A stretch of DNA of 64,000 nt, taken from positions 230,512 through 294,511 of the IMG/VR virus record IMGVR_UViG_3300029922_000001. One strand, given 5' to 3'. The stretch is from a virus. Below the pieces are notes generated by a model that worked only from the letters and a program-made list of their open reading frames with translations, was not told the DNA's origin and ran no database searches. The translations under genes and the position numbers were made by a program. Below, piece after piece: positions 11,133 through 36,381 of this stretch (the stretch's first letter is position 1; each line of letters starts with the position of its first letter).

Positions 11133-11492
11133 TTAGTCATTTATGTGTGCTAAACGACTTTTATAGATTAAAGTCGTTAATTCTTCATTGAGAAAAGATA
11201 TAAATTTATCATAATTAACATCGGCATTTTGAATGGAATGATTTACCTCTGGATATTTACCTTTATTCGAATGCACAATAACTTTTAAGTCTTGTAACAT
11301 AGCTCTTGTGGCTGGATTCCAAACATGTCCCCATCTACGATGTTCAAAACTTTTAAATATATCCAGTAATTCCTGAATGTTATATTTGACTCCCTTAACC
11401 ACAATGAAATAATGATGAACCCAAACTTGCTCAGACTCATATTTAACAGTATCAATGCCTAAATCATTCATAATATCAGAAGTATACCTCAA
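11133..11492 (-). CDS. hypothetical protein (weak paralog of 10767..11114)
   Basis: 119-aa ORF. Confidence 0.45.
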   Translation of the reverse strand: MRYTSDIMNDLGIDTVKYESEQVWVHHYFIVVKGVKYNIQELLDIFKSFEHRRWGHVWNPATRAMLQDLKVIVHSNKGKYPEVNHSIQNADVNYDKFISFLNEELTTLIYKSRLAHIND

Positions 11493-12136
11493 ATCGTATA
11501 TGATTTGAGGTTATAAAAATACGCCCTTGTTAATCTTTTGACCGTAGAGCTAGGTCCAATCCAAGACATGACGTGCCAACCACTAACACCCATTGACGAG
11601 CCTGTAACAGCCATTTGGAGCCTAATGGATATGTTCTTGACTTTCATGCCCAACTCTACACATAATGCTTTAATTGTGGTTTGAACCCACTCTAAGGAAA
11701 TGTCATTCTCACCTTCAAGAAGAGGTATATAATGATCTAAAAACAATCTAAAATCATCATCAAAAAGAGTTGGATTCTCAAAGGGAATTTCATAGTCAGA
11801 AATGGCAATACAACTCAAATGTTTAGCAAAATCAGATAGAATAAATGCTTTATCCTTAATATGCACAAGCATTTCATCAATGCGAGGATGATTCAAAGTG
11901 TCTTTGAAATGATGTAGTTGCGCTCCCATCAATCGTTTATTGAAATCCTTAATTTGCTTATTGTAGTCAACCTCATTGTCCTCATTGACTTCTATGGGGT
12001 TGTTTTTAATGATCGTATCTAAGATCATGAGATTTGGTAACTTTGAGTTATCAATATCGAACAAATTTGGTTTGTATAGAAAATCGCGCATAATGCGTTT
12101 ATTATACTTTATATTAACCCCTTTCAGCTTCTTCAA
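11489..12136 (-). CDS. hypothetical protein
   Basis: 215-aa ORF. Confidence 0.5.
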   Translation of the reverse strand: MKKLKGVNIKYNKRIMRDFLYKPNLFDIDNSKLPNLMILDTIIKNNPIEVNEDNEVDYNKQIKDFNKRLMGAQLHHFKDTLNHPRIDEMLVHIKDKAFILSDFAKHLSCIAISDYEIPFENPTLFDDDFRLFLDHYIPLLEGENDISLEWVQTTIKALCVELGMKVKNISIRLQMAVTGSSMGVSGWHVMSWIGPSSTVKRLTRAYFYNLKSYTI

Positions 12137-13935: not shown

Positions 13936-14144
13936 ATGATTATTATAGCTTGTTTTGTTGAGCTAAATCAAGTAGTATTTTTTGACGTTCTAATGGTGCA
14001 GAGACATAATCTGTTTTGATTAATTTACTGGTTTGCGTACTAGATAGACGATCTAATATACCAATCATGCTATTTAATAATATAATTTTTCTATTTTTTC
14101 TTTATCGCAATTTACAATAATTTTATCCAGTCTATCCAATCTAT

Positions 14145-14471
14145 TCATTTTATTCGCTCCATTAATATTTTGCTTCTTTTAGATGGTGATTTGGTTAGGA
14201 AGCCACAACCTTTAGCTTTATTGTAATCTAAATCAAAATCAAATTGATCTTTAGTGATATCAACTATGTCTTGTGTTTGTGGATTTTTTAAAAACCAATG
14301 AGTAATACCATCGACATTTAAAATGAATGGTTTGAAACCCAATTCTTTATATTTAAGATGATAAGCTACCTCGGAAGCCACATAACAATGACCCCAATAA
14401 GGATTAGAATGACCCCTGAATTGGGGTTTTAATAAATCTTGTGTTAAATGGCTTTGGATTTGTGTAATCAT
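14145..14471 (-). CDS. hypothetical protein
   Basis: 108-aa ORF. Confidence 0.45.
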   Translation of the reverse strand: MITQIQSHLTQDLLKPQFRGHSNPYWGHCYVASEVAYHLKYKELGFKPFILNVDGITHWFLKNPQTQDIVDITKDQFDFDLDYNKAKGCGFLTKSPSKRSKILMERIK

Positions 14472-15016
14472 TTCTTGACGATTCTTTTCCTGATATCAGC
14501 TTCAATTAAGGCATAGTCAGCACGTACTCTATCTGTGACTTGATAACCATCCTCAACATCAATACCAAAACGTTTTCGTGCATTGACGGTATCAGCATCT
14601 GGACCTGTCATGGGTAGATATTTAAGACTACCATTAACTTTAACCATTTCTCTATCGTTATTGCCGTAAGCACATTTAGCTACTGAATTGTAAGGATTAC
14701 CATCTTCTGGAATATAACCACGCAGTTTACTTCCGTCCCAATAAATAATAAAGAACACCGGATATTCCCAGTCTCCACCAGCACTAACTCCTAAAAAGGT
14801 TAAACCATTATCAAGGGTGTGAATACCCGTTAATGGTGTGAATTTATCTTCAGCATCTTCTACGTTCTCACAATCAAAGCTAACTTTTGCTAAATCCTTT
14901 GTGATAGTTGTGGTAAGTGTTGGGTATTGATAATAACCGAATTCATCAGAATCTCTAGCTTTTTGAAGTTTAATTCTAAAATCTTTTTCAGGTATTTCCA
15001 CAAAGAATCTACTCAT
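14468..15016 (-). CDS. hypothetical protein
   Basis: 182-aa ORF. Confidence 0.5.
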   Translation of the reverse strand: MSRFFVEIPEKDFRIKLQKARDSDEFGYYQYPTLTTTITKDLAKVSFDCENVEDAEDKFTPLTGIHTLDNGLTFLGVSAGGDWEYPVFFIIYWDGSKLRGYIPEDGNPYNSVAKCAYGNNDREMVKVNGSLKYLPMTGPDADTVNARKRFGIDVEDGYQVTDRVRADYALIEADIRKRIVKK

Positions 15017-15209
15017 TGTCTAGATCCACTACTTTAGTTAAATTAGGTAATAACTCTACTAGCTTACGATAAGCTTTAGTGTTAATATGAAATTTTTCAG
15101 TATCTGTGTATATTCTAAACTGACTATCATTGAACGAAGTTACAATACCTACAATTTTATCTGTATTAACATGGTAAATATATGGTCCATTTTTATATGT
15201 GATATACAT
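15009..15209 (-). CDS. hypothetical small protein
   Basis: 66-aa ORF. Confidence 0.35.
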   Translation of the reverse strand: MYITYKNGPYIYHVNTDKIVGIVTSFNDSQFRIYTDTEKFHINTKAYRKLVELLPNLTKVVDLDNE

Positions 15210-15379
15210 GCTTACATTATAACACTATTTGACTATAAAATACAACACTTTAGGTGGATTACGGTAATATTTAGCTAAAGTTGCTTGACCCTCCAGTGTT
15301 GCTAATGCACGATCAATAATAGCTTCTCTATCTTTCATATCTTGAATAATTGCATTAATATTTTTCGTGTTACTCGTGG

Positions 15380-15482
15380 AGCGGGTAGCGGAATTCGAAT
15401 CCGCATTTTAGCGTTCCTCTAAGTAAATATTTTAATATTTCTCACAGGCAACGCCATGTTCTAACCATTGAACTATATCCGC
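15380..15482 (-). tRNA. intron-containing tRNA, probable anticodon GCC (Gly); about 31-nt insertion in the anticodon loop; CCA encoded (15377..15379)
   Basis: Acceptor GCGGATA/TACCCGC with one mismatch. D-arm GTTC-AATGGTTA-GAAC. T-arm GCGGA-TTCGAAT-TCCGC. Anticodon stem TGGCG/CGCTA flanks TTGCC + 31 nt + AA. The insert contains an AAATATT/AATATTT hairpin. Confidence 0.55.
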
Positions 15483-15503
15483 GTGAATATATTATACCAC
15501 TTA

Positions 15504-15770
15504 TTAAGACGCTTTGACCTTTTTGTGAGTGTATTGTTCGGCGTTAATTAATTGTGAAATATTAGGATCTGAGCTAAATTCAATATCATTCTTAATGATA
15601 TTGAGGACTTCTTCACCATTTGGCATAGAAATTAATTTCTCTATTAAAGAAAATAATTTTCTATTTTGTTCCATTTGTGCGTCAAGTACATCTTTATTAA
15701 CCATAATTTTGGGTGTAAAATTTGGTATATATTTATAACTGCATGGCATTCTTTCTGATCGTATTGGCAT
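15504..15770 (-). CDS. hypothetical protein
   Basis: 88-aa ORF. Confidence 0.4.
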   Translation of the reverse strand: MPIRSERMPCSYKYIPNFTPKIMVNKDVLDAQMEQNRKLFSLIEKLISMPNGEEVLNIIKNDIEFSSDPNISQLINAEQYTHKKVKAS

Positions 15771-15776
15771 AGATTA

Positions 15777-16145
15777 TTATAGTCTAATTCTAAAAGAAAC
15801 TGATGGATCAACAATAATTACAGGTTCTGGATCATAATAACCAACAATAGGACCGTTTTCATAATAAGCTACCCCACCACCTTCATACCAAAACATGGTG
15901 ACATCACCAATAACGTAGGTTGTAACCCAATGGCATCTAGGTCTTTCACCAATGCGCCAAACACGAGTAGGAGTGAATCTATAATGTTCAAATCTACGAA
16001 TTCTAGAGTGTTCTGGTCTGCGATTTTGTTCTTGTCTAATTGCGGGTCTGCGTGATTCTTGATGACCACCACGACGCTGAGCTAAACCACTAACAGAAAG
16101 AGCTAGAATAGAGCAAAGAGCAATAAGTTTTAGATTTTGTTTCAT
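15777..16145 (-). CDS. secreted Arg/Pro-rich hypothetical protein
   Basis: Signal peptide MKQNLKLIALCSILALSVSGLA. Confidence 0.45.
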   Translation of the reverse strand: MKQNLKLIALCSILALSVSGLAQRRGGHQESRRPAIRQEQNRRPEHSRIRRFEHYRFTPTRVWRIGERPRCHWVTTYVIGDVTMFWYEGGGVAYYENGPIVGYYDPEPVIIVDPSVSFRIRL

Positions 16146-16175
16146 ACCTTATTATTATCCCTTTGCACTTTAAAT

Positions 16176-16526
16176 TTACTGAGAATTATTTAAGATATCA
16201 CTTCTTAAATGATCATATTTGCTTCGTTCATCTGCATACAAAGTGATAAGGGATTGTAGTCTTTCATCAGTAATGTCAGTAAGAATTTCCATTTCTGGAA
16301 TTTCACCCCATACGTTGTATATCTTATGTTTAATACAAAACTGCGTATGTCTTCGTTTACAATAAGGCTGGAAAATTAGCACATAAAACATAAATATTGT
16401 GAAAATACAGCCCATTACAAGTACCCAATGGAAAATAGCACTTGCAATTAAAAGAAAGTATCCACCAAAAACAATCCACATTGGCAGAACACGAGTGGTG
16501 AAATGTGTGTTATAAAAATTACTCAT
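16176..16526 (-). CDS. small membrane protein
   Basis: Two hydrophobic helices: FGGYFLLIASAIFHWVLVMGCIFTIFMFYVLIF. Confidence 0.45.
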   Translation of the reverse strand: MSNFYNTHFTTRVLPMWIVFGGYFLLIASAIFHWVLVMGCIFTIFMFYVLIFQPYCKRRHTQFCIKHKIYNVWGEIPEMEILTDITDERLQSLITLYADERSKYDHLRSDILNNSQ

Positions 16527-16756
16527 GATGAAAGTGTACCTTATTTCTTGATATGTTTATGGGTGTACTCATGAAATTCGGCAAGATGAAGATGCGGATG
16601 GGCGTTATTTTGAGCCATTTGCTGTATTGATTTCTTTGCCTTTAAGCATTTAGTATGGAAATATCCTTCCGGGGGGTTGACACAAGCTTAAAACATTTTA
16701 AATGCCAATTCCAGTGTTTGTTACAAAACTTACAAGTTTTCATATATAACTCGTGG

Positions 16757-16818
16757 AGCGAATAGCGGGATTCGAACCCGCCGATTTATAATTTAATGTG
16801 GTTTACCATATTGATCGC
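16757..16818 (-). pseudogene. truncated tRNA-like element (3' half only: T-arm, acceptor 3' strand, encoded CCA)
   Basis: GCGGG-TTCGAAT-CCCGC T-arm, then TATTCGC, T, CCA, CGAG. No D-arm or anticodon arm can be folded from the roughly 30 nt upstream. Confidence 0.3.
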
Positions 16819-17002
16819 CAAAATATATCAAAGCAATTAATTCTAGAAAAACAGAACTAAAATGATGAAATTCCAATGAACCTAATAAGGCTATGAAGAA
16901 AAATATCATGGAAACTTACACTTTTACATTTTGGACAATGTAGTTTTTCTGTAGCTTTCAAGTCTTTGAAATTGACAATAAATTGTCTTGTTGCTATCAT
17001 AG

Positions 17003-17099
17003 TTTTACTCGGAGCGGGTGTGGGTAGTCGAAACCCAATCTACTACTTCCTTTAGGTATATTCCTATCCCAAAGGAAGGAAGTTATAATAGCCGTTATA
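17003..17099 (-). tRNA. intron-containing tRNA (97 nt); anticodon CCU (Arg) if the insert sits between positions 36/37, otherwise uncertain
   Basis: Perfect acceptor GCGGGTG/CACCCGC. Discriminator T, then CC, then GAG. Anticodon stem CTTCC/GGAAG flanks TTCCT + about 20 nt + AA. The insert contains AGGAA, complementary to the loop. Confidence 0.5.
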
Positions 17100-17136
17100 A
17101 GACACCCGCTTACACATATATTATGCCCAATAATGA

Positions 17137-17388
17137 TTAGGTTTTTAGTGCAAATTCCTCATTTGTAGATACTAATTTTCTGATATATTCGGAAAGAACG
17201 TCTTCTACACCATTTGAACCATAGTCGGCAGTAAAAGCATAATCACCACCATCAATTCCTGAATTTTCGTATTTAACCAGTAGGCGCTTATGTGGTCTTT
17301 CATAAATACCAACAGCACGTCCACATACCATAGTTACATATAATCTTTGATTTTCCATGTGATTATTATAGCACAAAATCCGCCGCAA
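17137..17388 (-). CDS. hypothetical protein
   Basis: 83-aa ORF. Confidence 0.4.
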   Translation of the reverse strand: MRRILCYNNHMENQRLYVTMVCGRAVGIYERPHKRLLVKYENSGIDGGDYAFTADYGSNGVEDVLSEYIRKLVSTNEEFALKT

Positions 17389-17713
17389 CTTCTATGTGTT
17401 TTACAGTACTCACCTCACTTGCTTCTTTATTGTATTGATCAATTTTATTAGCCATACCAACAAGGCATTCTGCTATTTCTCTTAAATCTTCTGTTTCTAT
17501 AAACGGCATATGTATTTCTGATCTACAATCCCCTTCTTCGCCACAAAACACAAACGTCGTGAATAAATTAGGACCTCCTGGGAATTGACGATTTGGATTG
17601 ATATCTATTGTGTCAATATAAAAACATTGTTTAGCGCCTTCTCTATCCGTATTTTCCGCACCAACTACTCTATATGTTTTTGTTTTAACTTCACGATCAA
17701 TCATTTTATTCAT
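17366..17713 (-). CDS. hypothetical protein
   Basis: 115-aa ORF. Confidence 0.45.
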   Translation of the reverse strand: MNKMIDREVKTKTYRVVGAENTDREGAKQCFYIDTIDINPNRQFPGGPNLFTTFVFCGEEGDCRSEIHMPFIETEDLREIAECLVGMANKIDQYNKEASEVSTVKHIEVAADFVL

Positions 17714-17985
17714 CCTTCAACCTCAATAACTTTATTATATTGAATTTGTTCAGATAGCGTGTACTCTACAATTTCTACGGAATTTAAATATTCTTTATTA
17801 GAAACATTTCTTTGAGGATCATAATAAGAAATGTTTCTAAACTGAGTTAAATGCGCTTTAATATGATTTAACTGTTTCCATATTTTACCTTTTTTGTTAA
17901 ATAACGGATCTAATCCACCTGTAGAAAATAATCCAGTTTCTTTATTTCTTAATTTATATACTTTCATTGTAAAACTCGAATACAT
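17710..17985 (-). CDS. hypothetical protein
   Basis: 91-aa ORF. Confidence 0.4.
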   Translation of the reverse strand: MYSSFTMKVYKLRNKETGLFSTGGLDPLFNKKGKIWKQLNHIKAHLTQFRNISYYDPQRNVSNKEYLNSVEIVEYTLSEQIQYNKVIEVEG

Positions 17986-18002
17986 TATTAGTATATAATG
18001 TA

Positions 18003-18290
18003 TTATTTAATTAATGATTTAGCAGAAACTTCAACTAATTCCACTAAAGATTTTTCACTCAAATATCCACTATTAAATAATTTAACAGATTGAGCAAGAA
18101 ATTCAGATTCTTCCAATACCATTTTTTCTGTTAATGGCACAGAATTTCGTAATTTTTCAGCAAGTAAAATTATGGTTTTTCGCAATTCTACATCTAAATG
18201 TTTTCCGTTTTCTAATTTAAATTTAAGTAAATTTAAAGTTTCATTCAATTCGTAATTAATTTCTTCTAGGGTTTCAACAGTGTGTTTCAT
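18003..18290 (-). CDS. hypothetical protein
   Basis: 95-aa ORF. Confidence 0.4.
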   Translation of the reverse strand: MKHTVETLEEINYELNETLNLLKFKLENGKHLDVELRKTIILLAEKLRNSVPLTEKMVLEESEFLAQSVKLFNSGYLSEKSLVELVEVSAKSLIK

Positions 18291-18429
18291 ATCAAATAAT
18301 AATTTAATAATTTATATATTCTATACCTTCGGTTTGTTAATGAGTTTTGTCTGCAAATCATATTATATTTAAAATACTAGTAATTTTACTTGTTTATGGT
18401 ATATAAATAAAATTATTCTTATCACAATC

Positions 18430-18942
18430 CTAAGTACTATCTTTAGTTGGATTAACACTAAATAATTCTTTTCTTATTTCCATCCACAATTTTCCTAATT
18501 GATTTTGTCCATCTTTATTAGGTCCCCATCCCCAAAAATTATCACGCCAACTACACTCTACGATTGCATTATCACCACTAGCTTTAAGTTTTTTCATAAC
18601 ATACGGATGTTGATTTGCTTTTTCTTTTAAAATTTCTTTCATAATATCAAGTTTAACTTCATCCCAATCAACACGTCTTATATTTTTATTTTCCTCAGCC
18701 CATTTGAAACAAGCATGTGCTGAAGGCATTTTTCTAATCATATTTTTGATTTTTGGATCGTCAAATTTCTCAGAATGATAAGCGTGTTCTGATGTTGGAT
18801 AAATCTTACCCTTCCAATATAGTTGAAATGCAGAAAAATTAGAGAAAATATAATAATCACGTTCATAACAATCAAGGATTGGTAAGTCGTAATTCGCTAA
18901 ATCGTGATATTCAATCATGCTATTATTATAAGTAATCTTCAT
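18430..18942 (-). CDS. NADAR (YbiA-like) domain protein; predicted ADP-ribose N-glycosidase/hydrolase family
   Basis: Family signatures FSNFSAF ... YPTSEHAYHSEKF ... WGWGPNKDGQNQLGKLWMEIR. Confidence 0.8.
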   Translation of the reverse strand: MKITYNNSMIEYHDLANYDLPILDCYERDYYIFSNFSAFQLYWKGKIYPTSEHAYHSEKFDDPKIKNMIRKMPSAHACFKWAEENKNIRRVDWDEVKLDIMKEILKEKANQHPYVMKKLKASGDNAIVECSWRDNFWGWGPNKDGQNQLGKLWMEIRKELFSVNPTKDST

Positions 18943-19186
18943 GATATTCTACTACTGGAGTGTTTGATTTAGCTTTAGACTCTTCTTCAGCTAACATGCC
19001 CTTTTGATAAGCCTCATTAAGCAATCTTAAATGTCTAGCTTCATGATCAGTAATCTCTCCATCCATTTGTGAAATTGAATTTATATCTTGTTCAACATAC
19101 ATCATCTTAGGAGATTCGTTAACGTCCTGAAATAATTTAAGATCGTGTGTTTTGGTTGTATTTTCGTTTATGATATTTGGTTTCAT
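18926..19186 (-). CDS. hypothetical protein
   Basis: 86-aa ORF. Its 5' end and upstream region are duplicated at 19609..19720. Confidence 0.4.
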   Translation of the reverse strand: MKPNIINENTTKTHDLKLFQDVNESPKMMYVEQDINSISQMDGEITDHEARHLRLLNEAYQKGMLAEEESKAKSNTPVVEYHEDYL

Positions 19187-19242
19187 GCTTTATTATGAGC
19201 AATAATCACGTAAGAATACCTGTTTTTGGGACTTTTAGAAAT

Positions 19243-19521
19243 TTAATGATGTAAATAAATAATCCTGATAATGCCAAAAACAGCAAAAGTAGCGACAATT
19301 ATATTGATGATTGCAGATTGATAAATTTTCTTATGATAAGTTAGAATGAATGCGCCAGTAGCACCCATTAAAACAATAATGTAATAAATTACTTGATTGG
19401 AATTAATGACATTAAAACTAGATAATGCATAAGAAAGTATTACAAAAAATACACCTATCCAACCAATAAATTCAATGATTTTGTTTTTCAACTTTGACTT
19501 CATTGAATTAGTATACCTCAC
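19243..19521 (-). CDS. small membrane protein
   Basis: Three predicted transmembrane helices. Confidence 0.4.
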   Translation of the reverse strand: MRYTNSMKSKLKNKIIEFIGWIGVFFVILSYALSSFNVINSNQVIYYIIVLMGATGAFILTYHKKIYQSAIINIIVATFAVFGIIRIIYLHH

Positions 19522-19527
19522 TCGTGG

Positions 19528-19590
19528 AGGGCTATGTGAGAATCAAAGGAATTTATATTCTTATTTAGAACTTCAATGTATGGAACCTTT
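19528..19590 (-). pseudogene. tRNA-like remnant (3' end ATAGCCC, T, CCA, CGAG) that does not fold into a cloverleaf
   Basis: Shares the CCA-CGAG 3' signature of the neighbouring tRNAs and has a TTTGATTC T-loop-like segment. No acceptor 5' partner was found. Confidence 0.25.
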
Positions 19591-19608
19591 CATATTATTA
19601 AATACACC

Positions 19609-19707
19609 AGATCATCTTAGGAGATTCGTGAACGTCCTGAAATAATTTAAGATCGTGTGTTTTGGCTGGATTTTCGTTTATGACATTTGTCTTCATGCTT
19701 TATTATG
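19609..19707 (-). pseudogene. truncated duplicate of the 5' end of gene 18926..19186 (32 codons: MKTNVINENPAKTHDLKLFQDVHESPKMIWCI, then stop)
   Basis: A segment of about 110 nt is roughly 90% identical to 19089..19200, including the upstream GCTTTATTATGAG region. Confidence 0.45.
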
Positions 19708-19723
19708 AGTAAAAATACCAGTT

Positions 19724-20074
19724 TTATACGCAGGTTTTAAGTTTGTTATTAAGGCGTTTAAACAATAAATAAACATCATTCTTGTCAGAATCGCTAATTT
19801 CCATACCCCAATAACAATTATATCCTGCTCTATGAGAACAGCCGCAGAATAAAATCTTTTGGTCGCGTTTAACGCATACATCAAAACTACCCTCCCTGGT
19901 ATTATAACCGTAATTTAAAGTTAACCCCATTTTAGAAACATCTTCAAAATCAACATTATGTGAATTAAGATCGCTTATTGTCTTAACAAAATTATGCAAC
20001 ATTACATTTTCGGGATTATAATTTTCCTCAAAATATGGGCTTGTTGTTTCTTGGAAATCTTCAAAAGTTCTCAT
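19724..20074 (-). CDS. hypothetical protein
   Basis: 116-aa ORF. The overlapping ORF 19693..19884 was rejected. Confidence 0.45.
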   Translation of the reverse strand: MRTFEDFQETTSPYFEENYNPENVMLHNFVKTISDLNSHNVDFEDVSKMGLTLNYGYNTREGSFDVCVKRDQKILFCGCSHRAGYNCYWGMEISDSDKNDVYLLFKRLNNKLKTCV

Positions 20075-20087
20075 AATTTATTATAAA

Positions 20088-20750
20088 TCAATCTTTTAGT
20101 TCCCAGCCCAATTTTATTAATTTCTTGCATAAATCTTTCCAGTGGGCTGCACCGTAATGGATATACATATTGCCTTCTTGCTCTTTAATGTGTTTAATTA
20201 AAATATCATTTCTTTCGTAAAGAACCATTTTGTATGTTATTATAAATAAAATTGTATCAATCAATTCCATTAAAAAACATTTCATAAAATCAGGTAGCAT
20301 TTTAAATAATTTTTTAATATTTTTGTAGTTTGCAAATAATAACCAGTAAATAATTTTATGTTTTACAATTATAGCTATGCTTTTTTCTGCATGTTCCTGA
20401 AAACTCATATCCGCTAAAATATATTTATTGTCTTTGAAACGTTGAATTGTGTTGCCTTCTCCAAAGTCTAGATATTCAAAAGTTTGGTTTTGGAATTTAA
20501 GTTTGTTGGAAAACCTGCGTGAGTTACTGATGTTTTTAAATCTATCGTAAATGCAAAAAATTCTTTCATCTAAAGTTTTGTATCTTAAATTACCATCACC
20601 ATAATATAGACCCTCAAATAGAAAAATGTAATTTTGATTGGTGTAAAACTCTATATCTTTTTGTATTTTTTGATATTTTTCTTTAGTGTCAAAATGCGTC
20701 ATGCCTTGAAAAACTATAGTTTGATTATTTTTGTGAAGAATTTTTTTCAT
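20088..20750 (-). CDS. hypothetical protein (possible TraB/GumN-like)
   Basis: 220-aa ORF. The motifs QGMTHF and HYGAAHW are only weakly reminiscent of TraB/GumN. Confidence 0.5.
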   Translation of the reverse strand: MKKILHKNNQTIVFQGMTHFDTKEKYQKIQKDIEFYTNQNYIFLFEGLYYGDGNLRYKTLDERIFCIYDRFKNISNSRRFSNKLKFQNQTFEYLDFGEGNTIQRFKDNKYILADMSFQEHAEKSIAIIVKHKIIYWLLFANYKNIKKLFKMLPDFMKCFLMELIDTILFIITYKMVLYERNDILIKHIKEQEGNMYIHYGAAHWKDLCKKLIKLGWELKD

Positions 20751-20931
20751 TGCGAATTGGGATTTCTATGGTGAATTTTGCGCCTGAGTTTATTAATTCA
20801 GTATTTGAGACGATTAATTTTAAAATATGATCAAATTCTTCTTTATTAATATCTTTATTTATTAATAAAAAACCAGCTTTCATCGCCATATCATATGCTT
20901 TGTTGTTGTTCATAAGTACTCGGAGGGGCAT
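20725..20931 (-). CDS. hypothetical small protein
   Basis: 68-aa ORF. Its annotated start overlaps the 3' end of tRNA 20924..21013, so the true start may be internal. Confidence 0.3.
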   Translation of the reverse strand: MPLRVLMNNNKAYDMAMKAGFLLINKDINKEEFDHILKLIVSNTELINSGAKFTIEIPIRNEKNSSQK

Positions 20932-21013
20932 ACTAGAATCAAACTAGTTCATAACGCATTTGCTAGATCATTAACCTAGCAGTGCGTCGCGATTCTCATT
21001 TCGCCAATGCCCC
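20924..21013 (-). tRNA. intron-containing class I tRNA; anticodon GCU with a canonical or 36/37 insert, or GCA (Cys) if the insert lies 1-2 nt upstream; discriminator U
   Basis: Perfect acceptor GGGGCAT/ATGCCCC. D-arm GCG/CGC. T-arm ACTAG-TTTGATT-CTAGT. Anticodon stem ACGCA/TGCGT flanks CTGCT + 17 nt + AA. The insert hairpin GCTAG..CTAGC pairs with the anticodon. Confidence 0.6.
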
Positions 21014-21023
21014 AAACTCTCGG

Positions 21024-21099
21024 AGCGCGGAGGGAGAATCGAACTCAACCGAATAATGGTTTTGCAGACCATTCCAATTAACCACTCTGGTACCCGCGC
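21024..21099 (-). tRNA. tRNA-Cys (GCA)
   Basis: Acceptor GCGCGGG/TCCGCGC. D-arm CCAG-AGTGGTTAA-TTGG. Perfect anticodon stem ATGGT/ACCAT with loop CTGCAAA. Discriminator U, then CC, then GAG. The T-stem is weak. Confidence 0.7.
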
Positions 21100-21121
21100 A
21101 TATTTATCTCGCTGAGGTTCT

Positions 21122-21802
21122 TTATACCTCATATTGCTTCATTAATTCTGGATCACTTTGAGCCGCTATCCATTTATCATATTCTTCAATTTGCTCTTTA
21201 ATTTGTTCAGCACTATCTGCTGTTTTAGATTGGCAACTTTTAATGTCGTTTAATTTACTAAATAATGATTCCACAAGAGGATGTTTTGGTAAATAACATA
21301 TTCCCTTAGAAGCATAATAATCAATTAATTCTTTTTGTTTAAGTTTTGATTCTAATTTATTTTCTTCTGAACATGAACACTTTGGATGAAATGCGTTATA
21401 CATTCTCATATCTTCAATTCTATTTTCTTCAGTGTAAGCACTACAATTAAACAAAATTTCATCATCTTTATCATCCAACTCTAACAGATTAATTAATTCT
21501 TTAATTTTATAAGTTGGTCGATTTTGCTTGTACCAATCCGATTTTTCGTTCTCTTGATTATTTATTAATAAATTCTGTTTTAATGATGGTATTAATTTTT
21601 CAAAAACCTCATGTAGTGTACTTCCTTTAATTTGCACTCTACCAGCAGGTTGAAAATTTAAATTAAATTTAATATTGCCTTTTTTGGACATTGTTAAAGT
21701 CATATGATTCGTTCCACCCATGTTACTTAATCCATCTGGACAATTTTGTAAAAACTCTTTTAATATTTTTAATGTTTTATCTATATTCATTTCCTTTACC
21801 AA
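21122..21802 (-). CDS. hypothetical protein
   Basis: 226-aa ORF. Confidence 0.5.
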   Translation of the reverse strand: MVKEMNIDKTLKILKEFLQNCPDGLSNMGGTNHMTLTMSKKGNIKFNLNFQPAGRVQIKGSTLHEVFEKLIPSLKQNLLINNQENEKSDWYKQNRPTYKIKELINLLELDDKDDEILFNCSAYTEENRIEDMRMYNAFHPKCSCSEENKLESKLKQKELIDYYASKGICYLPKHPLVESLFSKLNDIKSCQSKTADSAEQIKEQIEEYDKWIAAQSDPELMKQYEV

Positions 21803-22137
21803 GATATTGTTAACTGATAACTTTCATAACTTTCATATCCTTCGTATTCACGATCCTTTACAAGAACAACACCATATTCTTCGTCTTCAAAAAACTTTTT
21901 AACATTACAGGCAATTTGATAATTATATAATGTCTCCGTATGACATTCATACTCACCCCTTTTGGCATGTTTTTCAATTAATTTTTTACATTCATCAATG
22001 GTAGTTATTTCTAACTGTTGAAGTCGTAGTTTTTCAGATTGAGCGAATTGTCTTTCTTCTTCTTCAAGAGCAAGTCTTCTTGCTTCAATTTGTTCTTTAG
22101 CTTCTTGAGTTAATCTTCTTGCTTCTTGGATGTTCAT
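21796..22137 (-). CDS. hypothetical coiled-coil protein
   Basis: 113-aa ORF with a charged heptad-like N-terminus. Confidence 0.45.
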   Translation of the reverse strand: MNIQEARRLTQEAKEQIEARRLALEEEERQFAQSEKLRLQQLEITTIDECKKLIEKHAKRGEYECHTETLYNYQIACNVKKFFEDEEYGVVLVKDREYEGYESYESYQLTISW

Positions 22138-22145
22138 TGTAACTA

Positions 22146-22293
22146 TTATACCTTACGACGAATTCGTATGAGAGTATTATCTACTTCTTTTCTTGTGATA
22201 CCTAAAAAAGCAGCAATTGCACGATAAGATTTATTTAAACCATAAGCAATATAAACCTTGGTTTCATTTTGAGTTAATTCTAAATTATTCATA
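22146..22293 (-). CDS. small (about 48 aa) LuxR/sigma-70 region-4-type helix-turn-helix protein; not in the supplied ORF track
   Basis: Hand translation gives MNNLELTQNETKVYIAYGLNKSYRAIAAFLGITRKEVDNTLIRIRRKV. This matches the LuxR-type HTH consensus (LT..E..V......G.s..eIA..LgIs..TV...l.rI..Kl). Coordinates are +/-2 nt. Confidence 0.4.
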
Positions 22294-22318
22294 AGTGTAT
22301 TATAGCATATTTTCTCGC

Positions 22319-22407
22319 GGGAGCTTAGAGATTCGAACTCTAAAGGCGCTTTTTACACGCCTAGCTGTTTTCAAGACAGTTTACCGTCACCAATGGCAGA
22401 ACTCCCG
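22319..22407 (-). tRNA. tRNA-Ser (UGA), class II
   Basis: Acceptor GGGAGTT/AGCTCCC. Anticodon loop CTTGAAA. Variable arm GGCG-TGTAAAAAG-CGCC. T-arm TAGAG-TTCGAAT-CTCTA. Discriminator G, then CGAG. Confidence 0.7.
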
Positions 22408-22516
22408 TATTATTTCGCGGTAAGTAAAATATTCGAATTCGATTCAAAGAATATGAAGACAAACTTTGTTTAATTATTGATTCTATTTTAGGTAGACTTA
22501 ACAATTAAACATCTCG

Positions 22517-22602
22517 AAGACACCAGAATCGAACTGGACTCGCTTTTTACACGAGCGAACAACTTTCCAGGTTGCCGTCATCACCATCAGACATTATCTT
22601 CC
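22517..22602 (-). tRNA. tRNA-Ser (GGA), class II
   Basis: Acceptor GAAGATA/TGTCTTC. Anticodon stem GCAAC/GTTGT with loop CTGGAAA. Variable arm is homologous to that of the Ser(UGA) gene (..GTGTAAAAAGCG..). T-loop TTCGATT. Confidence 0.6.
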
Positions 22603-22615
22603 ATATTATCTCGGA

Positions 22616-22688
22616 GCGCCAAATTGGAATCGAACCAATTTCCTATTGCTTACCAAGCAATCGTTCACCCACATGAACTTTAAGCGCA
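22616..22688 (-). tRNA. tRNA-Thr (GGU)
   Basis: D-arm GTTC/GAAC. Perfect anticodon stem ATTGC/GCAAT with loop TTGGTAA. T-arm ATTGG-TTCGATT-CCAAT. U6:U67 mismatch in the acceptor stem. Discriminator T, then CC, then GAG. Confidence 0.7.
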
Positions 22689-22701
22689 TATATCTCGTGG
22701 A

Positions 22702-22772
22702 GGCTCAATAGAGAATCAAACTCTACTCTGCGGTTTACAAAACCGCTGCATCGTCACAATGCTTTAAAGCCA
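22702..22772 (-). tRNA. tRNA-Thr (UGU); CCA encoded (22699..22701)
   Basis: Acceptor GGCTTTA/TTGAGCC (U:U at 6:67). D-arm GCAT/ATGC. Anticodon stem GCGGT/ACCGC with loop TTTGTAA. T-arm TAGAG-TTTGATT-CTCTA. Confidence 0.7.
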
Positions 22773-22785
22773 TATTATCTCGTAA

Positions 22786-22884
22786 GCCTAGTATCTGATT
22801 CGAACAGATGATGTTTGTATTCTTACTTGTTCTATTTTTTAACACAACAAGGTAAGTGCAATCGACCGCTATGCAAACTAGGCA
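22786..22884 (-). tRNA. intron-containing tRNA (99 nt), probable anticodon UGU (Thr); duplicate of 22702..22772 carrying an insert
   Basis: Perfect acceptor GCCTAGT/ACTAGGC. T-arm ATCTG-TTCGAAT-CAGAT. Anticodon stem CTTAC/GTAAG flanks CTTGT + 18 nt + AA. The insert extends the anticodon helix (CTTGTT/AACAAG). Confidence 0.5.
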
Positions 22885-22898
22885 TTTTATCTCGTGGA

Positions 22899-22984
22899 GG
22901 AAGGCAGCGGGATCGAACCGCAGACGTATTTCAGTCCGTATAGTTTAGCAAACTATCCTAATCGCCGTTTTAGATTACCTTCCA
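22899..22984 (-). tRNA. tRNA-Ser (GCU), class II; CCA encoded (22896..22898)
   Basis: Acceptor GGAAGGT/GCCTTCC. Anticodon stem ATAGT/ACTAT with loop TTGCTAA. Long variable arm. T-loop TTCGATC. Confidence 0.65.
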
Positions 22985-22992
22985 TTATCTCG

Positions 22993-23076
22993 GCTAACGG
23001 GGAGATTCAAACTCCCGAAGGTTTTCACCGATGCATTACGAGTGCATTCCAATTGATCAACTATGGGACGTTAGCA
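22993..23076 (-). tRNA. class II-like tRNA with anticodon CGU (Thr by anticodon; identity uncertain)
   Basis: Perfect acceptor GCTAACG/CGTTAGC. Perfect anticodon stem ATGCA/TGCAT with loop CTCGTAA. Variable arm GGT-GAAA-ACC. T-arm GGGAG-TTTGAAT-CTCCC. Confidence 0.5.
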
Positions 23077-23399
23077 TTTAACATTTCTACATATCTAACT
23101 AAAACCTGACCGTGACACCTTTCTTGTTCGCCCCAACCAGTTTTAGGTCTACAAAAGCATACCAATTTTTTATTATGTAAGGATTTTACCTTATCTTTGA
23201 ATATTAAATCAGTTTCTAATCTATTTTTTAGATATTTTTCATATTCTGGTAAAGTAGAACTAGGAACTTGACCTGGAGATAATACTATTGGATTGCCAAA
23301 ATATCCACTCTGTCCTTTCCCTGCTCTACCTATGTAGACATATTCAGAATCTTGTTCCCAACCCTTGTTGAGATGATATAAATTTACTACTTCAGTCAT
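23061..23399 (-). CDS. DUF4326-like protein
   Basis: VYIGRAGKGQSGYFGNP ... KLVCFCRPKTGWGEQERCHGQVL matches the DUF4326 conserved core as recalled. Its 3' end overlaps the tRNA at 22993..23076 by about 16 nt. Confidence 0.5.
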   Translation of the reverse strand: MTEVVNLYHLNKGWEQDSEYVYIGRAGKGQSGYFGNPIVLSPGQVPSSTLPEYEKYLKNRLETDLIFKDKVKSLHNKKLVCFCRPKTGWGEQERCHGQVLVRYVEMLNANVP

Positions 23400-23952
23400 T
23401 GACTTCCTCTATATATGCTGGTGGCACATATTCTGTTAACCATACACCATTTTCAGAACGATAAAAAACAAATCTATTCAAATCCATTTGCTTTGAATCC
23501 ACCTTCAATAGTGCATACTTTCCTCTTCTAGAACCAACATTAATTGCTGTTTCTATGTTTTCAGAAAGATGAACCGCATGACGATACATCTTCTTAATTC
23601 CTTCCTCTAAAATCATTGGTACAGCATCATATGTTGTACCATGATAAAGAATGGCAGGAGGATTCAATGGAACTAACTGAAGATCAACTTCACAAGAATG
23701 ACCTTGATTGGCTCTAATTCTTGCTCCTGATTCATCATAAGAATATCTTTGCTTATTATTTTCCGTCACTAACTGATCTAAATCAGCCTTTGTGATGTTA
23801 ATATTAAACTTTTTCAAACCGTCTAATAGTTGTGTTACGAATACATAACCTCCAAGATCAAGCTTTTCAACTCCAATCTTTTGTGGCTCATGTCGCAATA
23901 TTAACGAAATAAACTTTCCTATTCTTTTAAATTCACGTTCATCCTTAATCAT
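23392..23952 (-). CDS. tpt1: RNA 2'-phosphotransferase Tpt1/KptA
   Basis: Canonical Tpt1 motifs: ISLILRHEPQKIG, ARIRANQGHS, LYHGT, RHAVHLS. Confidence 0.85.
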   Translation of the reverse strand: MIKDEREFKRIGKFISLILRHEPQKIGVEKLDLGGYVFVTQLLDGLKKFNINITKADLDQLVTENNKQRYSYDESGARIRANQGHSCEVDLQLVPLNPPAILYHGTTYDAVPMILEEGIKKMYRHAVHLSENIETAINVGSRRGKYALLKVDSKQMDLNRFVFYRSENGVWLTEYVPPAYIEEVND

Positions 23953-23974
23953 GTTCTTTTCCCTAACAATGCCC

Positions 23975-24505
23975 TTACTTTTTAGGTAAGAGCATTACTG
24001 TCATTTGTTTCCCTTGTAAGAGAATTTCCCTATCTACAGTTACAATATCATTTAGTTTTTCCAAACAATATTCCAACTTTTGCTTTCCAATATGAGGGTG
24101 AGCGAGTTCTTTTGTTTTGAACTTGCAAACCAACTGCACTTTGTCATGCTTCCCAATAAATTCAACCGCTTTACGAATTGACGTATCCAAGTCATGTACA
24201 GCCGTATTAGGGCTAATACAAAGTGTTTTAAGTTCTTGAGGCTTTTTACGGTTGTCTTTTGCACGTTTTGCCTCTTCATACTTATATTTGCCATAGCTTA
24301 CGATTTTGCAGATAGGTGGTTGTACCTTATCAGATACGCACAACAAATCTAAACCAGCATCATATGCTATTTGGATTGCATCCTTCGTGGGCATTACACC
24401 AATATTTTTGTTATTAGCGTCAATGACCGTTACTTCGGTAAATTGCTTAATGAGTCTTTCATTAAGGGGTGGGAATTCTCTGCGATTACTTTTTTTCATC
24501 ATCAT
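23975..24505 (-). CDS. infC: translation initiation factor IF3 (bacterial type)
   Basis: N-domain VTVIDANNKNIGVMPTKDAIQIAYDAGLDLLCVSDKVQPPICKIVSYGKYKYEE plus a C-domain. Matches the IF3 family end to end. Confidence 0.85.
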   Translation of the reverse strand: MMMKKSNRREFPPLNERLIKQFTEVTVIDANNKNIGVMPTKDAIQIAYDAGLDLLCVSDKVQPPICKIVSYGKYKYEEAKRAKDNRKKPQELKTLCISPNTAVHDLDTSIRKAVEFIGKHDKVQLVCKFKTKELAHPHIGKQKLEYCLEKLNDIVTVDREILLQGKQMTVMLLPKK

Positions 24506-24792: not shown

Positions 24793-25326
24793 TTACCATG
24801 TTTTTTTGCTTTTACCATCAAAACCTGTTTCTTTTAAGATTCTATCCCAAATTTCTTCTTTTGGAGTGTTCCCTAAATATGGATCTTTTGCCCAATTCAA
24901 GTTGGTAATTTCTAGTATAACAGGAAATGGTGGAGTATAGGCTTCAGCTTCTTCTAAAGAAGAAAATTCCATTTCCATACTAAGCAAATAATGTCTATGG
25001 ATCATATATTCATTAATTTCTTCACCGCTAGATAAAAAAGTTCTTCGTTTTTCAACTCTTTTCATTTTTGGTATTAAATTGTAATTATAAAACCAATTAA
25101 AAAGAAAAATTGGGATTTTAATATTGTATTCTTTTCTGACCAAAGGATCTGAGGTTTTTAATTTAAAAGTTAATTCGCATTTATTTGAAACTGAATATGT
25201 TTTACGAATGCGACAACTTTTAAAAAATGGAAAATATCCTTGTGAAATGTATACGTTGTGTGTTTGAGTATCCCAAGGAATATCATTTTGATTTACTATA
25301 AACTTGCGTTCAATTTCATTAGCCAT
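24793..25326 (-). CDS. hypothetical protein, member of a local tandem paralog family (MANEIERKFIV...)
   Basis: 177 aa. The N- and C-terminal halves recur separately in 25653..25886 and 25340..25600. Confidence 0.5.
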   Translation of the reverse strand: MANEIERKFIVNQNDIPWDTQTHNVYISQGYFPFFKSCRIRKTYSVSNKCELTFKLKTSDPLVRKEYNIKIPIFLFNWFYNYNLIPKMKRVEKRRTFLSSGEEINEYMIHRHYLLSMEMEFSSLEEAEAYTPPFPVILEITNLNWAKDPYLGNTPKEEIWDRILKETGFDGKSKKTW

Positions 25327-25893: not shown

Positions 25894-26883
25894 TTATACT
25901 TGAGCAAGTTCGGCTTGTAGCTCTTTAATGCGCTTTTGGAGTTCAAGTTTCTTTTTAAGTGTCGCTTCTTCTCTAAGCAAAGCTTGGAATTCAGCATCAA
26001 CTTCTTCCACTGCAACAGTCTCTAAAGCAACATGCTTCTTTATGGCTTTAGCTGCTTTAGGCATTTCTGTAGCCAAGATTGGTACATATCCTCTTAGTAT
26101 AAGAGTAAGACTTGTTGCATGATCTTCAATATCAATCCATTCTTTTTGACCAAAGGTTTGATTGGATCTGCTACCTTCAACAGTGCAAACATCTTGTTCT
26201 CTTGATTCATTTAAAGATTTTGGCATAGCATTCGCAAATGAGTCTAAAGAATCCATTGACATGCTTGAAGCGGAATATGTTGGAGAACCAAAGCTTAATG
26301 AATTCAGTGAATTTACTGAATCTGAGCATAATCCTCTTACATTGCTTTTCATGGAAGATTGACCAATTAAAGCATTATTACTACCACACCAGACTTCATC
26401 ATGTCGTCTAGGGTAATGCTTGTAAGGGTATGAATAATCACGATACCAAGGATATGAATAATCATGATAATGATGATGATCTACTACGATTGGAATGTAG
26501 ACTGGTTGTGGTTTTTCTTTTTCTAACCAGAAGAAGGCTTCAACAACACCTTTGGAGCGGTCTTCATTAGAACCATTTTTTCCAAAATCAATAGCGTCAT
26601 TACTGTCTAAAGCAGCTAATTTAAAGCATTTGTTGGTTTCATAGAAGCGTTCAAGATCAATTGCGCTGTTAGCGTTAATAATATATCCATCACCGGATAC
26701 ATTTTCCCCGTCAATATGAATTTTGACCAAGGCTCTACGATTGTTTTTGTTTCTGAGGCGTAAACTATATTCTGATCCGAATGGAACTAGTACAGAATGA
26801 TCGTTTCTCTCTGGGAGAAAGTCGTTTTGATTTTTGAGCTTGATAGCAAGCACGAAGTTTTTGTTATACATATTTTTAACCAT
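25894..26883 (-). CDS. hypothetical protein with His/Tyr-rich low-complexity segment and C-terminal coiled coil
   Basis: The ORF is open to 26949. An internal Met at about 26883 avoids overlapping the divergent PARP gene. Contains HHHYHDYSYPWYRDYSYPYKHY. Confidence 0.5.
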   Translation of the reverse strand: MVKNMYNKNFVLAIKLKNQNDFLPERNDHSVLVPFGSEYSLRLRNKNNRRALVKIHIDGENVSGDGYIINANSAIDLERFYETNKCFKLAALDSNDAIDFGKNGSNEDRSKGVVEAFFWLEKEKPQPVYIPIVVDHHHYHDYSYPWYRDYSYPYKHYPRRHDEVWCGSNNALIGQSSMKSNVRGLCSDSVNSLNSLSFGSPTYSASSMSMDSLDSFANAMPKSLNESREQDVCTVEGSRSNQTFGQKEWIDIEDHATSLTLILRGYVPILATEMPKAAKAIKKHVALETVAVEEVDAEFQALLREEATLKKKLELQKRIKELQAELAQV

Positions 26884-27081
26884 TATAATCCTAACTCTTG
26901 TCCTCATGAGAGCGTGATTCGGCACCTTAATGGCGAGTGCCAAGGACAATTCTATTATACACCCGTTTTGAGGTTTTTTACCTTCGGATTAAAAAACAGT
27001 CCAAACACAATAAAATTAATTATAATAAATTACCTTGTGAATAGGCTTGACAGTCTGAGGAATAGGAGGTATTATAACAAC

Positions 27082-36353: not shown

Positions 36354-36381
36354 TCAAGAATGATTGTGGTATACTGAAATC

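Follow-up and report, generated by a model that had tools for sequence, protein, structure and literature searches.

To our knowledge, the tRNA introns of bacteria and phages are self-splicing group I introns, and the short tRNA introns that are spliced by proteins belong to archaea and eukaryotes. A possible exception has been described in the Lak megaphages, in which the tRNA introns are offset by one nucleotide (nt) from the 37/38 prediction, occur as presence/absence alleles, and were termed "enigmatic" by the authors (Devoto et al. 2019, PMC6784885). In addition, a 2026 survey reported intronic sequences in the tRNAs of recoded jumbo phages, without a mechanism (PMC13037316). Here, we describe five tRNA genes with short inserts in the anticodon loop in a 64,000-nt stretch of viral DNA (IMG/VR record IMGVR_UViG_3300029922_000001, positions 230,512 to 294,511; hereafter the window). 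On balance, we favor the view that these are genuine tRNA genes of a huge phage and that their inserts form a class of short hairpin introns of their own, the excision of which would be guided by a helix and staggered by 2 base pairs (bp). Full-text literature searches yielded no account of short hairpin introns in the tRNAs of phages, and relative to the literature searched, a minimal hairpin intron of phage tRNAs with a conserved geometry (a continuous helix, a predicted 2-bp stagger and a G.U at the fourth pair) is new.

The inserts resemble the Lak introns in several respects. Both are found in tRNA genes of phages larger than 500 kb, one nucleotide 5' of the canonical site, that is, at 36/37. 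In both cases the mature loops would end in AA (for Lak: CTGTAAA, CTGAAAA, CTTGTAA and CTTCCAA, taken from Table S6 and shifted by one base), and the sets of interrupted tRNAs overlap in Gly-UCC and Thr-UGU. However, the Lak introns are 79-114 nt long and contain a tRNA-like or T-arm-like module, whereas those described here, including three from relatives, are simple hairpins of 17-32 nt. According to our reading of the printed sequences, the last two bases of the Lak introns do not pair with nt 35-36, in contrast to the present ones. The phages differ as well, with 26% GC and genetic code 15 in Lak and 33% GC and an apparently standard code here. The present introns can be regarded as a minimal form of the Lak-type exception, short, devoid of an accessory module and with a testable recognition geometry, and the removal of phage tRNA introns is now approachable with synthetic substrates.

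Five interrupted tRNA genes in a huge phage

The five genes all lie on the minus strand of the window. The tRNA-Gly(GCC) gene at 15377-15482 consists of exon 1 (15482-15447), a 31-nt insert (15446-15416, TGTGAGAAATATTAAAATATTTACTTAGAGG) and exon 2 (15415-15377), and the tRNA-Gly(UCC) gene at 17011-17109 consists of exon 1 (17109-17074), a 25-nt insert (17073-17049, TTTGGGATAGGAATATACCTAAAGG) and exon 2 (17048-17011). The gene at 20922-21013, which fits tRNA-Cys(GCA) best, has exon 1 at 21013-20979, a 17-nt insert at 20978-20962 (TAGGTTAATGATCTAGC) and exon 2 at 20961-20922. Two inserts of 18 nt each interrupt the tRNA-Thr(UGU) gene at 22783-22883 (exon 1, 22883-22847; insert, 22846-22829, TGTGTTAAAAAATAGAAC; exon 2, 22828-22783), which has a 12-nt variable region, and the tRNA-Leu(UAG) gene at 44870-44973 (exon 1, 44973-44939; insert, 44938-44921, CAAGATCAGAATTTTGCT; exon 2, 44920-44870), which has a long variable arm and A73. 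A scan of the window for T-arm and acceptor signatures revealed no further interrupted tRNA.

ARAGORN in bacterial mode without intron search reported 11 tRNAs in the window and missed all five genes, while with intron search (-i) it found four of them, at 15377-15482 (31 nt), 20922-21013 (17 nt), 22785-22883 (18 nt) and 44870-44973 (18 nt); the fifth, at 17011-17109, was recovered at a lowered threshold (-ps90). Two genes scored above the gathering score of the Rfam tRNA model (15380-15482, 52.8 bits; 44872-44973, 38.6 bits), and both alignments accommodate the insert within the anticodon loop as a local insertion. All five genes fold as a cloverleaf with a long anticodon arm, in which the insert is paired with the anticodon. 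An initial annotation of this DNA had already placed inserts that pair with the anticodon in the anticodon loops of these genes, and both points were borne out, with insert lengths of 17-31 nt. Its coordinates for the Gly-UCC gene, 17003-17099, are about 10 nt off, and the insert of this gene is 25 nt long in the correct register. In addition, the Leu gene lies outside the span of 15380-22884 that had been given for the set, and the CCA attributed to several of the genes is complete only in 15377-15482, with CC in three others and none in one.

The exons have the properties of genuine tRNA genes. In Escherichia coli, G1-C72, C2-G71, G3-C70 and U73 are identity elements of tRNA-Gly, and A73 and the long variable arm are those of tRNA-Leu; all of the former can be read from the sequence of the Gly(GCC) gene. 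When the inserts were removed in silico, ARAGORN called Gly, Cys, Thr and Leu, and the spliced sequences aligned end to end with annotated intronless phage tRNAs. The cloverleaf, the 7-bp acceptor stem, the T arm and the identity elements kept by compensatory change identify the five loci as bona fide tRNA genes.

The window, which has 33% GC and densely packed short genes, is found with identical sequence within a metagenomic contig of 521,591 bp (ena:ERZ27248709:k141_1408874, positions 231,361-295,360 by arithmetic); thus, its source is a megaphage-sized phage genome of approximately 520 kb. Shorter contigs from other independent assemblies of the same phage contain the same DNA. Because of this recurrence in independent assemblies, and because homologous intron-bearing genes exist in three unrelated metagenomes, the inserts are not assembly artefacts. 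Proteins encoded in the window include two paralogous head proteins (phrog_2522), a GH108 endolysin, endonucleases of the HNH and GIY-YIG types, IF3 and a class II aminoacyl-tRNA synthetase; there are also genes for a tmRNA and for many tRNAs. On the basis of the tmRNA, the endolysin and the major head protein the entity is a phage of bacteria. Its closest cultured relative by head protein is Bacillus phage G, with 22% identity, and the tRNA region of that phage is free of such introns. A megablast search with positions 14000-24000 against 50,697 phage records returned no match, a query of IMG/VR with the class II synthetase found no relatives, and two proteins encoded next to the tRNA arrays, of 222 and 224 aa, are ORFans.

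Position of the inserts

The insert boundaries were set by homology with intronless tRNAs in MAFFT alignments, because the modes of the tRNA software disagree. The free mode of ARAGORN gave Pro-AGG, Cys-GCA, Val-AAC and Arg-UCU, and the mode fixed at 37/38 gave Gly-GCC, Ser-GCU, Thr-UGU and Leu-UAG. For the five genes its assignments were Pro, Pyl, Cys, Val and Arg. Such genes are missed by default bacterial-mode finders and mis-assigned in intron-aware modes; inventories of phage tRNAs and inferences on codon usage will therefore be wrong wherever introns of this kind occur.

Without its 25 nt, the Gly-UCC gene aligns over the full length, with 77% identity, to the tRNA-Gly(tcc) annotated in Pseudomonas phage VCM and in Bacillus phage G, and the alignment gap falls exactly at CTTCC|25|AA, between nt 36 and A37. 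The Gly-GCC gene was aligned with a tRNA-Gly from Mesorhizobium phage Cp1R7A-A1 that lacks an intron and has an identical anticodon stem-loop, and here the gap lies between TTGCC and AA. Likewise, the gap of the Leu-UAG gene lies between CTTAG and AA when it is compared with the three other Leu tRNAs of the window and with phage type-II tRNAs. For the Thr-UGU gene, intronless orthologues with the loops CTTGTAA and TTTGTAA are found in two metagenomic arrays (L094:1951-2039 and L099:1675-1760) and share its unusual D arm and long variable region. The alignment fixes only the 5' boundary of this insert, after CTTGT, with the variable region mis-aligned, and the 3' boundary was read by eye. The alignments therefore support an insert between positions 36 and 37 in four genes, namely, both Gly genes, the Leu gene and, with its 3' boundary by eye, the Thr gene. 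Given the pyrimidine at the first intron position and the different base ahead of A37, these loops cannot result from a neighbouring cut.

Under the 37/38 rule, position 37 would be T, T, A, T and C across the five genes, as the initial annotation had observed when it proposed 36/37 for all of them. This proposal agrees with the alignments for Gly-GCC, Gly-UCC, Leu and Thr but not with the Cys gene, which is better explained by 35/36 (see below). The accompanying expectation that the mature loops end in AA also holds, since the spliced loops TTGCCAA, CTTCCAA, CTTGTAA and CTTAGAA match those of intronless homologues.

Two other readings were considered and discarded. A first register of the gene at 17011-17109, as Arg-CCU, Trp-CCA or a CUA suppressor, was rejected by homology in favor of Gly-UCC, and a reading of the Thr gene as Ala-UGC (register k=4) was ruled out by the loops of its orthologues and by the missing G.U.

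The long variable region is a peculiarity of the Thr tRNAs in its own right. tRNAs with Thr anticodons (CGU at 22992-23075 and UGU at 22783-22883, minus strand) have variable regions or arms of 12-17 nt, and this trait is conserved in the relatives mentioned above. In bacteria, long variable arms are a trait of Leu, Ser and Tyr tRNAs, not of Thr tRNAs.

Introns in relatives

We scanned metagenomes with a pattern of the Gly(UCC) exons separated by a gap of 10-40 nt. Three of the 12 matches were true relatives: Ga0315291_10062264 (L094), with 16 tRNAs in 4 kb, OFQZ01021845.1 (L096), and JACCDQ010768298.1 (L099), with 15 tRNAs in 3.5 kb. In all three, tRNA-Gly(UCC) is interrupted at 36/37 by an intron of 29-32 nt (CATTGAT...ATCGATGGG or CATTTAAA...TTTAGATGGG), the sequence of which is unrelated to that of the window intron. 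Gly-GCC and Thr-UGU are uninterrupted in the relatives; thus, the presence of the introns varies between lineages, and such presence and absence among related sequences would be expected for removable inserts. The same pattern had four matches in IMG/VR, none of them intron-bearing (three intronless tRNA-Gly genes and one non-tRNA), and nine chance matches in the genomes of 185,579 bacterial and archaeal species, also none with an intron.

Other interruptions were seen in L099, where a tRNA-Gly(UCC) gene at 1581-1669 has a hairpin of approximately 18 nt inserted in the D loop and, at 2240-2735, an open reading frame (ORF) for an HNH endonuclease comes after the 5' half of a further tRNA-Gly. 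These cases indicate that the tRNA genes of this phage group take inserts elsewhere, too.

A continuous helix in a common register

The geometry was compared in eight introns, five from the window and three from the relatives (17-32 nt). In all eight minimum free energy (MFE) folds, the anticodon arm forms one continuous helix in the same register. The last nucleotide of exon 1 pairs with the penultimate nucleotide of the intron and the second-last with the last, both pairs being Watson-Crick in 8/8 despite the differing anticodons (CC/GG, GC/GC, GU/AC and AG/CU). The first intron base pairs with the third from last, always as pyrimidine-purine, and nt 34 and 33 pair with A37 and A38 in most cases. 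The fourth intron pair is a wobble in every intron (G.U in the five of the window, U.G in the three relatives), and exon 2 always starts with A. The pairing is specific for the cognate tRNA, since only 2 of the 120 permutations of the introns among the five window tRNAs gave 5/5 matches. The lower stem comprises 7 bp and could stack on the D stem, and the upper stem comprises 6-12 positions. If the homology-defined junctions are placed on the predicted pairing, the two predicted cuts are offset in 8/8 introns in the manner of a 2-bp stagger with a 3' overhang.

Covariation was measured in an alignment of seven Gly(UCC) sequences, of which four bear the intron and three are intronless. The cloverleaf together with the extended helix had 96.4% of its cells paired, compared with 72.6% in column shuffles and 45-51% with slid partners. 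A total of 18 pairs change on both sides, including 5 of the 7 acceptor pairs and 4 of the 5 T-stem pairs, and the exon-intron helix shows compensatory change in 5 of its 10 pairs, among them the flipped G.U/U.G. One position behaves differently: pair 30:40 is a U30.U40 mismatch in all four intron-bearing copies and G-C in all three intronless homologues, with positions 27-29 and 41-43 covarying around it. This mismatch may be linked to intron processing.

The Cys gene has no close intronless homologue in the phage collection. A 36/37 cut would produce the anticodon GCU (Ser) on a class-I body with U73, and the gene has a 5-nt variable loop, as read from its sequence along with U73, and adjoins the intact tRNA-Cys(GCA) at 21022-21099, the tRNAs of the window being grouped by amino acid. 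Removing TAGGTTAATGATCTAGC by a 35/36 cut leaves the loop CTGCAAA, which is identical to that of this neighbour; cuts at 33/34 or 34/35 would yield the same product. ARAGORN called Cys(gca) in free mode and Ser(gct) in fixed 37/38 mode. Only the register k=4 gives this insert all five staggered-helix pairs and the G.U at the fourth pair. By the shared helix register and the identity elements, a 35/36 cut (anticodon GCA) thus fits the Cys gene better than 36/37. Because the gene conforms to the common register and the G.U only with this cut, it suggests that the cut sites are determined by the helix and not by how far they lie from the tRNA body.

The geometry also bears on the archaeal or eukaryotic flavor that the initial annotation had seen in these inserts. 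In those domains, the EndA or Sen endonuclease cuts at a bulge-helix-bulge (BHB) or a relaxed BHB, and the exons are joined by RtcB or by a Trl1-type ligase, with Tpt1 acting last in fungi and plants. Such introns are likewise short, located in the anticodon loop, paired with the anticodon and dependent on re-ligation by proteins; the range of 17-32 nt would suit them, and a Tpt1 gene lies beside a tRNA array of the window. However, a BHB has two 3-nt bulges 4 bp apart, whereas the sites here would be 2 bp apart inside a continuous helix. None of the splice registers of seven introns reaches 4/4 pairs in a central helix with flanking helices, so that no register allows a BHB, and the MFE folds contain no 3-nt bulges at the splice sites. 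The position differs as well, being 37/38 there and 36/37 (35/36 once) here, where a BHB would require unpairing of the anticodon stem; archaeal introns also occur at positions other than 37/38, still with a BHB. In addition, no EndA-like gene (no tRNA_int_endo match) was seen in the ORFs scanned, and the entity is a phage, the host being bacterial. We consider introns of this type very improbable here.

Self-splicing appears even less probable, to the extent that we give it almost no weight. All characterised tRNA introns of bacteria and phages are of group I, and they similarly interrupt the anticodon loop of bacterial-type tRNA genes, so degenerate group I-like introns or a small self-cleaving ribozyme were considered. 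Group I introns, however, exceed 200 nt and splice themselves by means of a catalytic core (P1-P9), whereas the present inserts are simple hairpins with unrelated primary sequences and no conserved core. At thresholds as permissive as E<=1 to 10, they have no Rfam match to Intron_gpI or to any other intron or ribozyme family. The view that the introns are a dispersed element, palindromic or derived from IS200/IS605, was likewise rejected, as each insert has a unique sequence within the window and is too short for transposon ends.

Probable removal of the inserts

We consider it likely that the inserts are excised and that the tRNA halves are rejoined by proteins. The alternative is that they are never removed and that the genes are pseudogenes, encode tRNA-like RNAs with a masked anticodon (nuclease decoys, regulators or primers), or are protected at the DNA level against homing endonucleases. 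Intact Thr-UGU and Cys-GCA paralogues next door to the interrupted genes would be compatible with this alternative, as would the fact that no splicing enzyme was identified among the ORFs scanned; moreover, genes for HNH and GIY-YIG endonucleases abound in the window and its relatives, one relative having the HNH ORF after the tRNA-Gly 5' half. However, the Gly-GCC, Gly-UCC and Leu-UAG genes are present in the window only as the interrupted copy. Unlike decaying pseudogenes, the exons keep the cloverleaf, the identity elements and compensatory changes across relatives, and a role at the DNA level alone would not keep an RNA helix through compensatory change. The anticodon-specific pairing of the last two intron bases and the invariant G.U rather suggest a processing signal. 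Retention of the inserts therefore seems improbable to us, although much less so than a BHB or self-splicing origin.

Under the splicing hypothesis, the intron would extend the anticodon stem into a continuous helix in the precursor, and both strands would be cut 2 bp apart by an endonuclease that recognises the helix instead of measuring from the tRNA body. The double cut would leave exon 1 with a 2-nt 3' overhang and release the hairpin. Enzymes of the RNase III family cut with this geometry, a 2-bp stagger that leaves a 2-nt 3' overhang. The tRNA halves would be held together by the cloverleaf, and an RNA ligase would seal the nick between nt 36 and A37 (35/36 in Cys) to give 7-nt loops of the form YU-anticodon-AA. 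The expected junctions are GCGTTGCC^AACGC for Gly-GCC, CCTTCC^AAGTAG for Gly-UCC, CACTGC^AAATGCG for Cys, CCTTGT^AAGTAAG for Thr and GGCTTAG^AACCCAT for Leu. An RNase III-type cut would produce 5'-phosphate and 3'-OH ends, which a ligase of the T4 Rnl1 or Rnl2 type could seal directly; if the nuclease is instead metal-independent, the ends would carry a cyclic phosphate and a 5'-OH and would have to be healed.

The intervening sequences of bacterial 23S and 16S rRNA that are excised by RNase III offer a parallel, as they, too, are helical extensions in a loop of a structural RNA, and the cut predicted here is similarly staggered with a 2-nt 3' overhang. In contrast, the rRNA fragments function while remaining unligated, whereas a tRNA cut in the anticodon loop needs sealing. 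The helices here are also much shorter, and the role of RNase III is hypothetical in the present case.

RNA-repair genes

The window encodes a set of candidate enzymes for the healing of RNA ends. An RNA 2'-phosphotransferase of the Tpt1/KptA family (23392-23952, minus strand; Pfam PF01885, E=1.6e-44) is located directly upstream of the Ser/Thr tRNA array on the same strand, and is a candidate for removing a 2'-phosphate at the splice junction. The end of its gene is overlapped by that of a DUF4326 protein (23061-23399, minus strand; precomputed Pfam PF14216 on the identical gene), which is predicted to process ADP-ribose-linked phosphates (PMC9503650). A T4-type Pnkp at 57372-58250 (plus strand; Pfam HAD_PNKP, 3.6e-32, and AAA_33, 1.8e-20) is a candidate end-healing enzyme, and a further AAA_33 kinase is encoded at 39648-40196. 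A cREC domain protein at 55247-55696 (plus strand; precomputed Pfam PF20274 on the identical gene in L079) belongs to a family predicted to be a cyclic phosphodiesterase (PMC9503650). The set for NAD/ADP-ribose processing includes a NADAR domain protein at 18430-18942 (minus strand; Pfam PF08719, 4.2e-27) and a Macro protein just beyond the end of the window (L079:663-1235). Through homologues of the Tpt1 protein, two related contigs of huge phages (L005 and the P0012 contig), neither with nearby tRNAs, and ordinary bacterial loci (L010 and L102) were reached. The same NAD/ADP-ribose and RNA-end gene set also contains a eukaryote-like PARP with WGR and PARP_reg domains (26797-28380) and a CYTH/TTM protein resembling PDB 3TYP/2FBL (24793-25326).

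This repertoire resembles that of T4 tRNA repair, in which Pnkp and Rnl1 counteract PrrC, and of the KptA sets of jumbo phages (PMC9503650), where Pnkp, Tpt1/KptA, cREC and NADAR/Macro proteins are directed at breaks in the anticodon loop. The difference is that in those systems the host inflicts the damage on intact tRNAs, whereas the break considered here would be built into the phage's own genes by the insert. If the ends bear a cyclic phosphate and a 5'-OH, Pnkp, cREC and Tpt1, together with DUF4326, NADAR and Macro proteins, would be candidates for end healing and for the clean-up of the junction. One variant of splicing does without an RNase III-type nuclease: metal-independent cuts, by an enzyme similar to anticodon nucleases or of the HEPN type, would be healed by cREC or Pnkp and the kinase, and a ligase would leave a 2'-phosphate for Tpt1 to remove. 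The presence of all of these genes in or just beyond the window, with Tpt1 abutting a tRNA array, is consistent with this variant. However, generic RNA repair in jumbo phages explains the same gene set, no ligase was found in the ORFs scanned, and a 2-bp stagger inside a helix is a signature of the RNase III family, whereas known anticodon nucleases cut single-stranded loops. We regard this variant as doubtful.

The nuclease and the ligase were sought among the ORFs. A search for an encoded splicing endonuclease or ligase had been proposed in the initial annotation; neither RNase III, EndA, a HEPN-type nuclease, RtcB nor an Rnl-type ligase was recognised by Pfam or PHROGs in approximately 80 ORFs of the window. 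The precomputed Pfam matches for approximately 17 kb of flanking sequence contain no such enzyme either, the coverage being approximately 81 of 521 kb. Individual candidates fared similarly. The ORF at 35781-36353, considered as a 2H phosphoesterase because of two HxT/S motifs, has by our reading a cupin-like HTHPWDF motif and no PDB sequence match, and the ORF at 36364-37500 had no matches in this search. The 224-aa ORFan at 42765-43439 (minus strand) is encoded downstream of both the Leu array and an HNH gene. Its residues 22-26 read EKFDG, and WVKPK is found close to the C terminus; the two resemble nucleotidyltransferase motifs I and V at Rnl2-like spacing. A ligase assignment is nevertheless unsupported, with no Pfam, PHROG or meaningful PDB match and an unusable AF2 model (pLDDT 38), and a single remote homologue was found among 1.8 billion representatives.

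Several points weigh against helix-guided excision as we propose it. The eight introns amount to about six independent cases, the removal of the inserts from RNA is a conclusion that we draw from conservation, and the exact cut sites are deduced from the product and the predicted structure. RNase III substrates have about one helical turn of double-stranded RNA on each side of the cleavage site, and in three introns the upper helix above the predicted cut has only 6 bp, which is short for a classical RNase III. The absence of a recognised nuclease or ligase in the sequence covered must be added to these points. Finally, Tpt1, Pnkp and cREC are common in jumbo phages as a defence against host anticodon nucleases (PMC9503650), and Tpt1/KptA has other substrates, as in the removal of the 2'-phosphate from tRNA U47 (PMC9095486) and in 5'-phosphate capping (PMC6182162). 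Because these genes are the usual kit against anticodon nucleases and Tpt1/KptA acts on other substrates, the repair genes are not specific evidence for splicing.

With these reservations, we put forward only tentatively, and as less probable than excision itself, the complete scheme in which huge phages possess a new protein-dependent tRNA-splicing pathway in bacteria, with a G.U-guided endonuclease that reads the helix, staggered excision, and rejoining by Pnkp or cREC, a ligase and Tpt1. If true, this would be the first tRNA intron system of the bacterial world that is not self-splicing, it would establish a functional link between phage tRNA repair and the Trl1-Tpt1 splicing of fungi and plants, and a natural substrate with a 2'-phosphate junction would be possible for bacterial-type Tpt1/KptA. 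The introns bear on the role of Tpt1/KptA in taxa without fungal-type tRNA splicing (PMC6097658, PMC6573784) and on the evolutionary relation of phage RNA-repair enzymes to eukaryotic tRNA ligases.

Other features of the tRNA arrays and the window

All 19 tRNA and tRNA-like genes of the window, which lie on the minus strand, have a GAG-containing trailer 0-3 nt after the discriminator, mostly CGAG(A/T)(A/T)A with the consensus CGAGATA (for example, at 22776-22782, 22888-22894 and 44864-44870), and the next gene usually begins after ...ATAT|G. CGAGATA also precedes the first gene of an array. The 18 occurrences of the motif in the window do not exceed chance expectation (19), but 14 of them are adjacent to tRNAs, and 17 lie on the minus strand. 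Different trailers are found in the relatives L094 and L099, and a search of IMG/VR with the CGAGATA trailer gave 67 chance matches and no tRNA arrays. The trailer is probably a phage-specific processing signal.

Two paralogous tRNA-like genes at 44382-44462 and 44476-44557 (minus strand) belong to the Leu cluster. Their acceptor stem, of 7 bp, shows covariation between the copies; the T arm is good, the D loop is of the Leu type, and the anticodon loops are TTTAGAA and TTAAGAA. Besides a short variable loop (ATCCT), they have a connector of 7 nt, TGGATAA, in place of nt 8-9, the GGAT of the connector being complementary to the ATCC of the variable loop. Both were missed by ARAGORN and scored 19-20 bits in Rfam, below the threshold. 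Between the two interrupted Gly genes, at 16756-16818 (minus strand), there is a degenerate Gly-like tRNA remnant. Its T arm is perfect, the 3' strand of its acceptor reads TATTCGC, and the CGAG trailer comes after T-CCA, while its 5' half and anticodon arm are poor.

Two TnpB genes (IS605 OrfB / Cas12f-like TNB) are present at 45418-46764 (plus strand) and 52685-53794 (minus strand), neither with an adjacent TnpA; one of them directly adjoins the Leu tRNA array, and a weak HEARO-like Rfam match (28 bits) at 52670-52776 overlaps the end of the second. The phage tmRNA at 63063-63416 (plus strand) scores 62.9 bits against the Rfam model and has an atypical predicted tag peptide, GKSYAYVG*. Two further genes are related to aminoacylation: 11489-12136 (minus strand) encodes a stand-alone anticodon-binding domain of the GluRS/GlnRS type (PF19269) without a catalytic domain, and 34304-35779 (plus strand) encodes a complete class II aminoacyl-tRNA synthetase of the Asp/Asn/Lys type.

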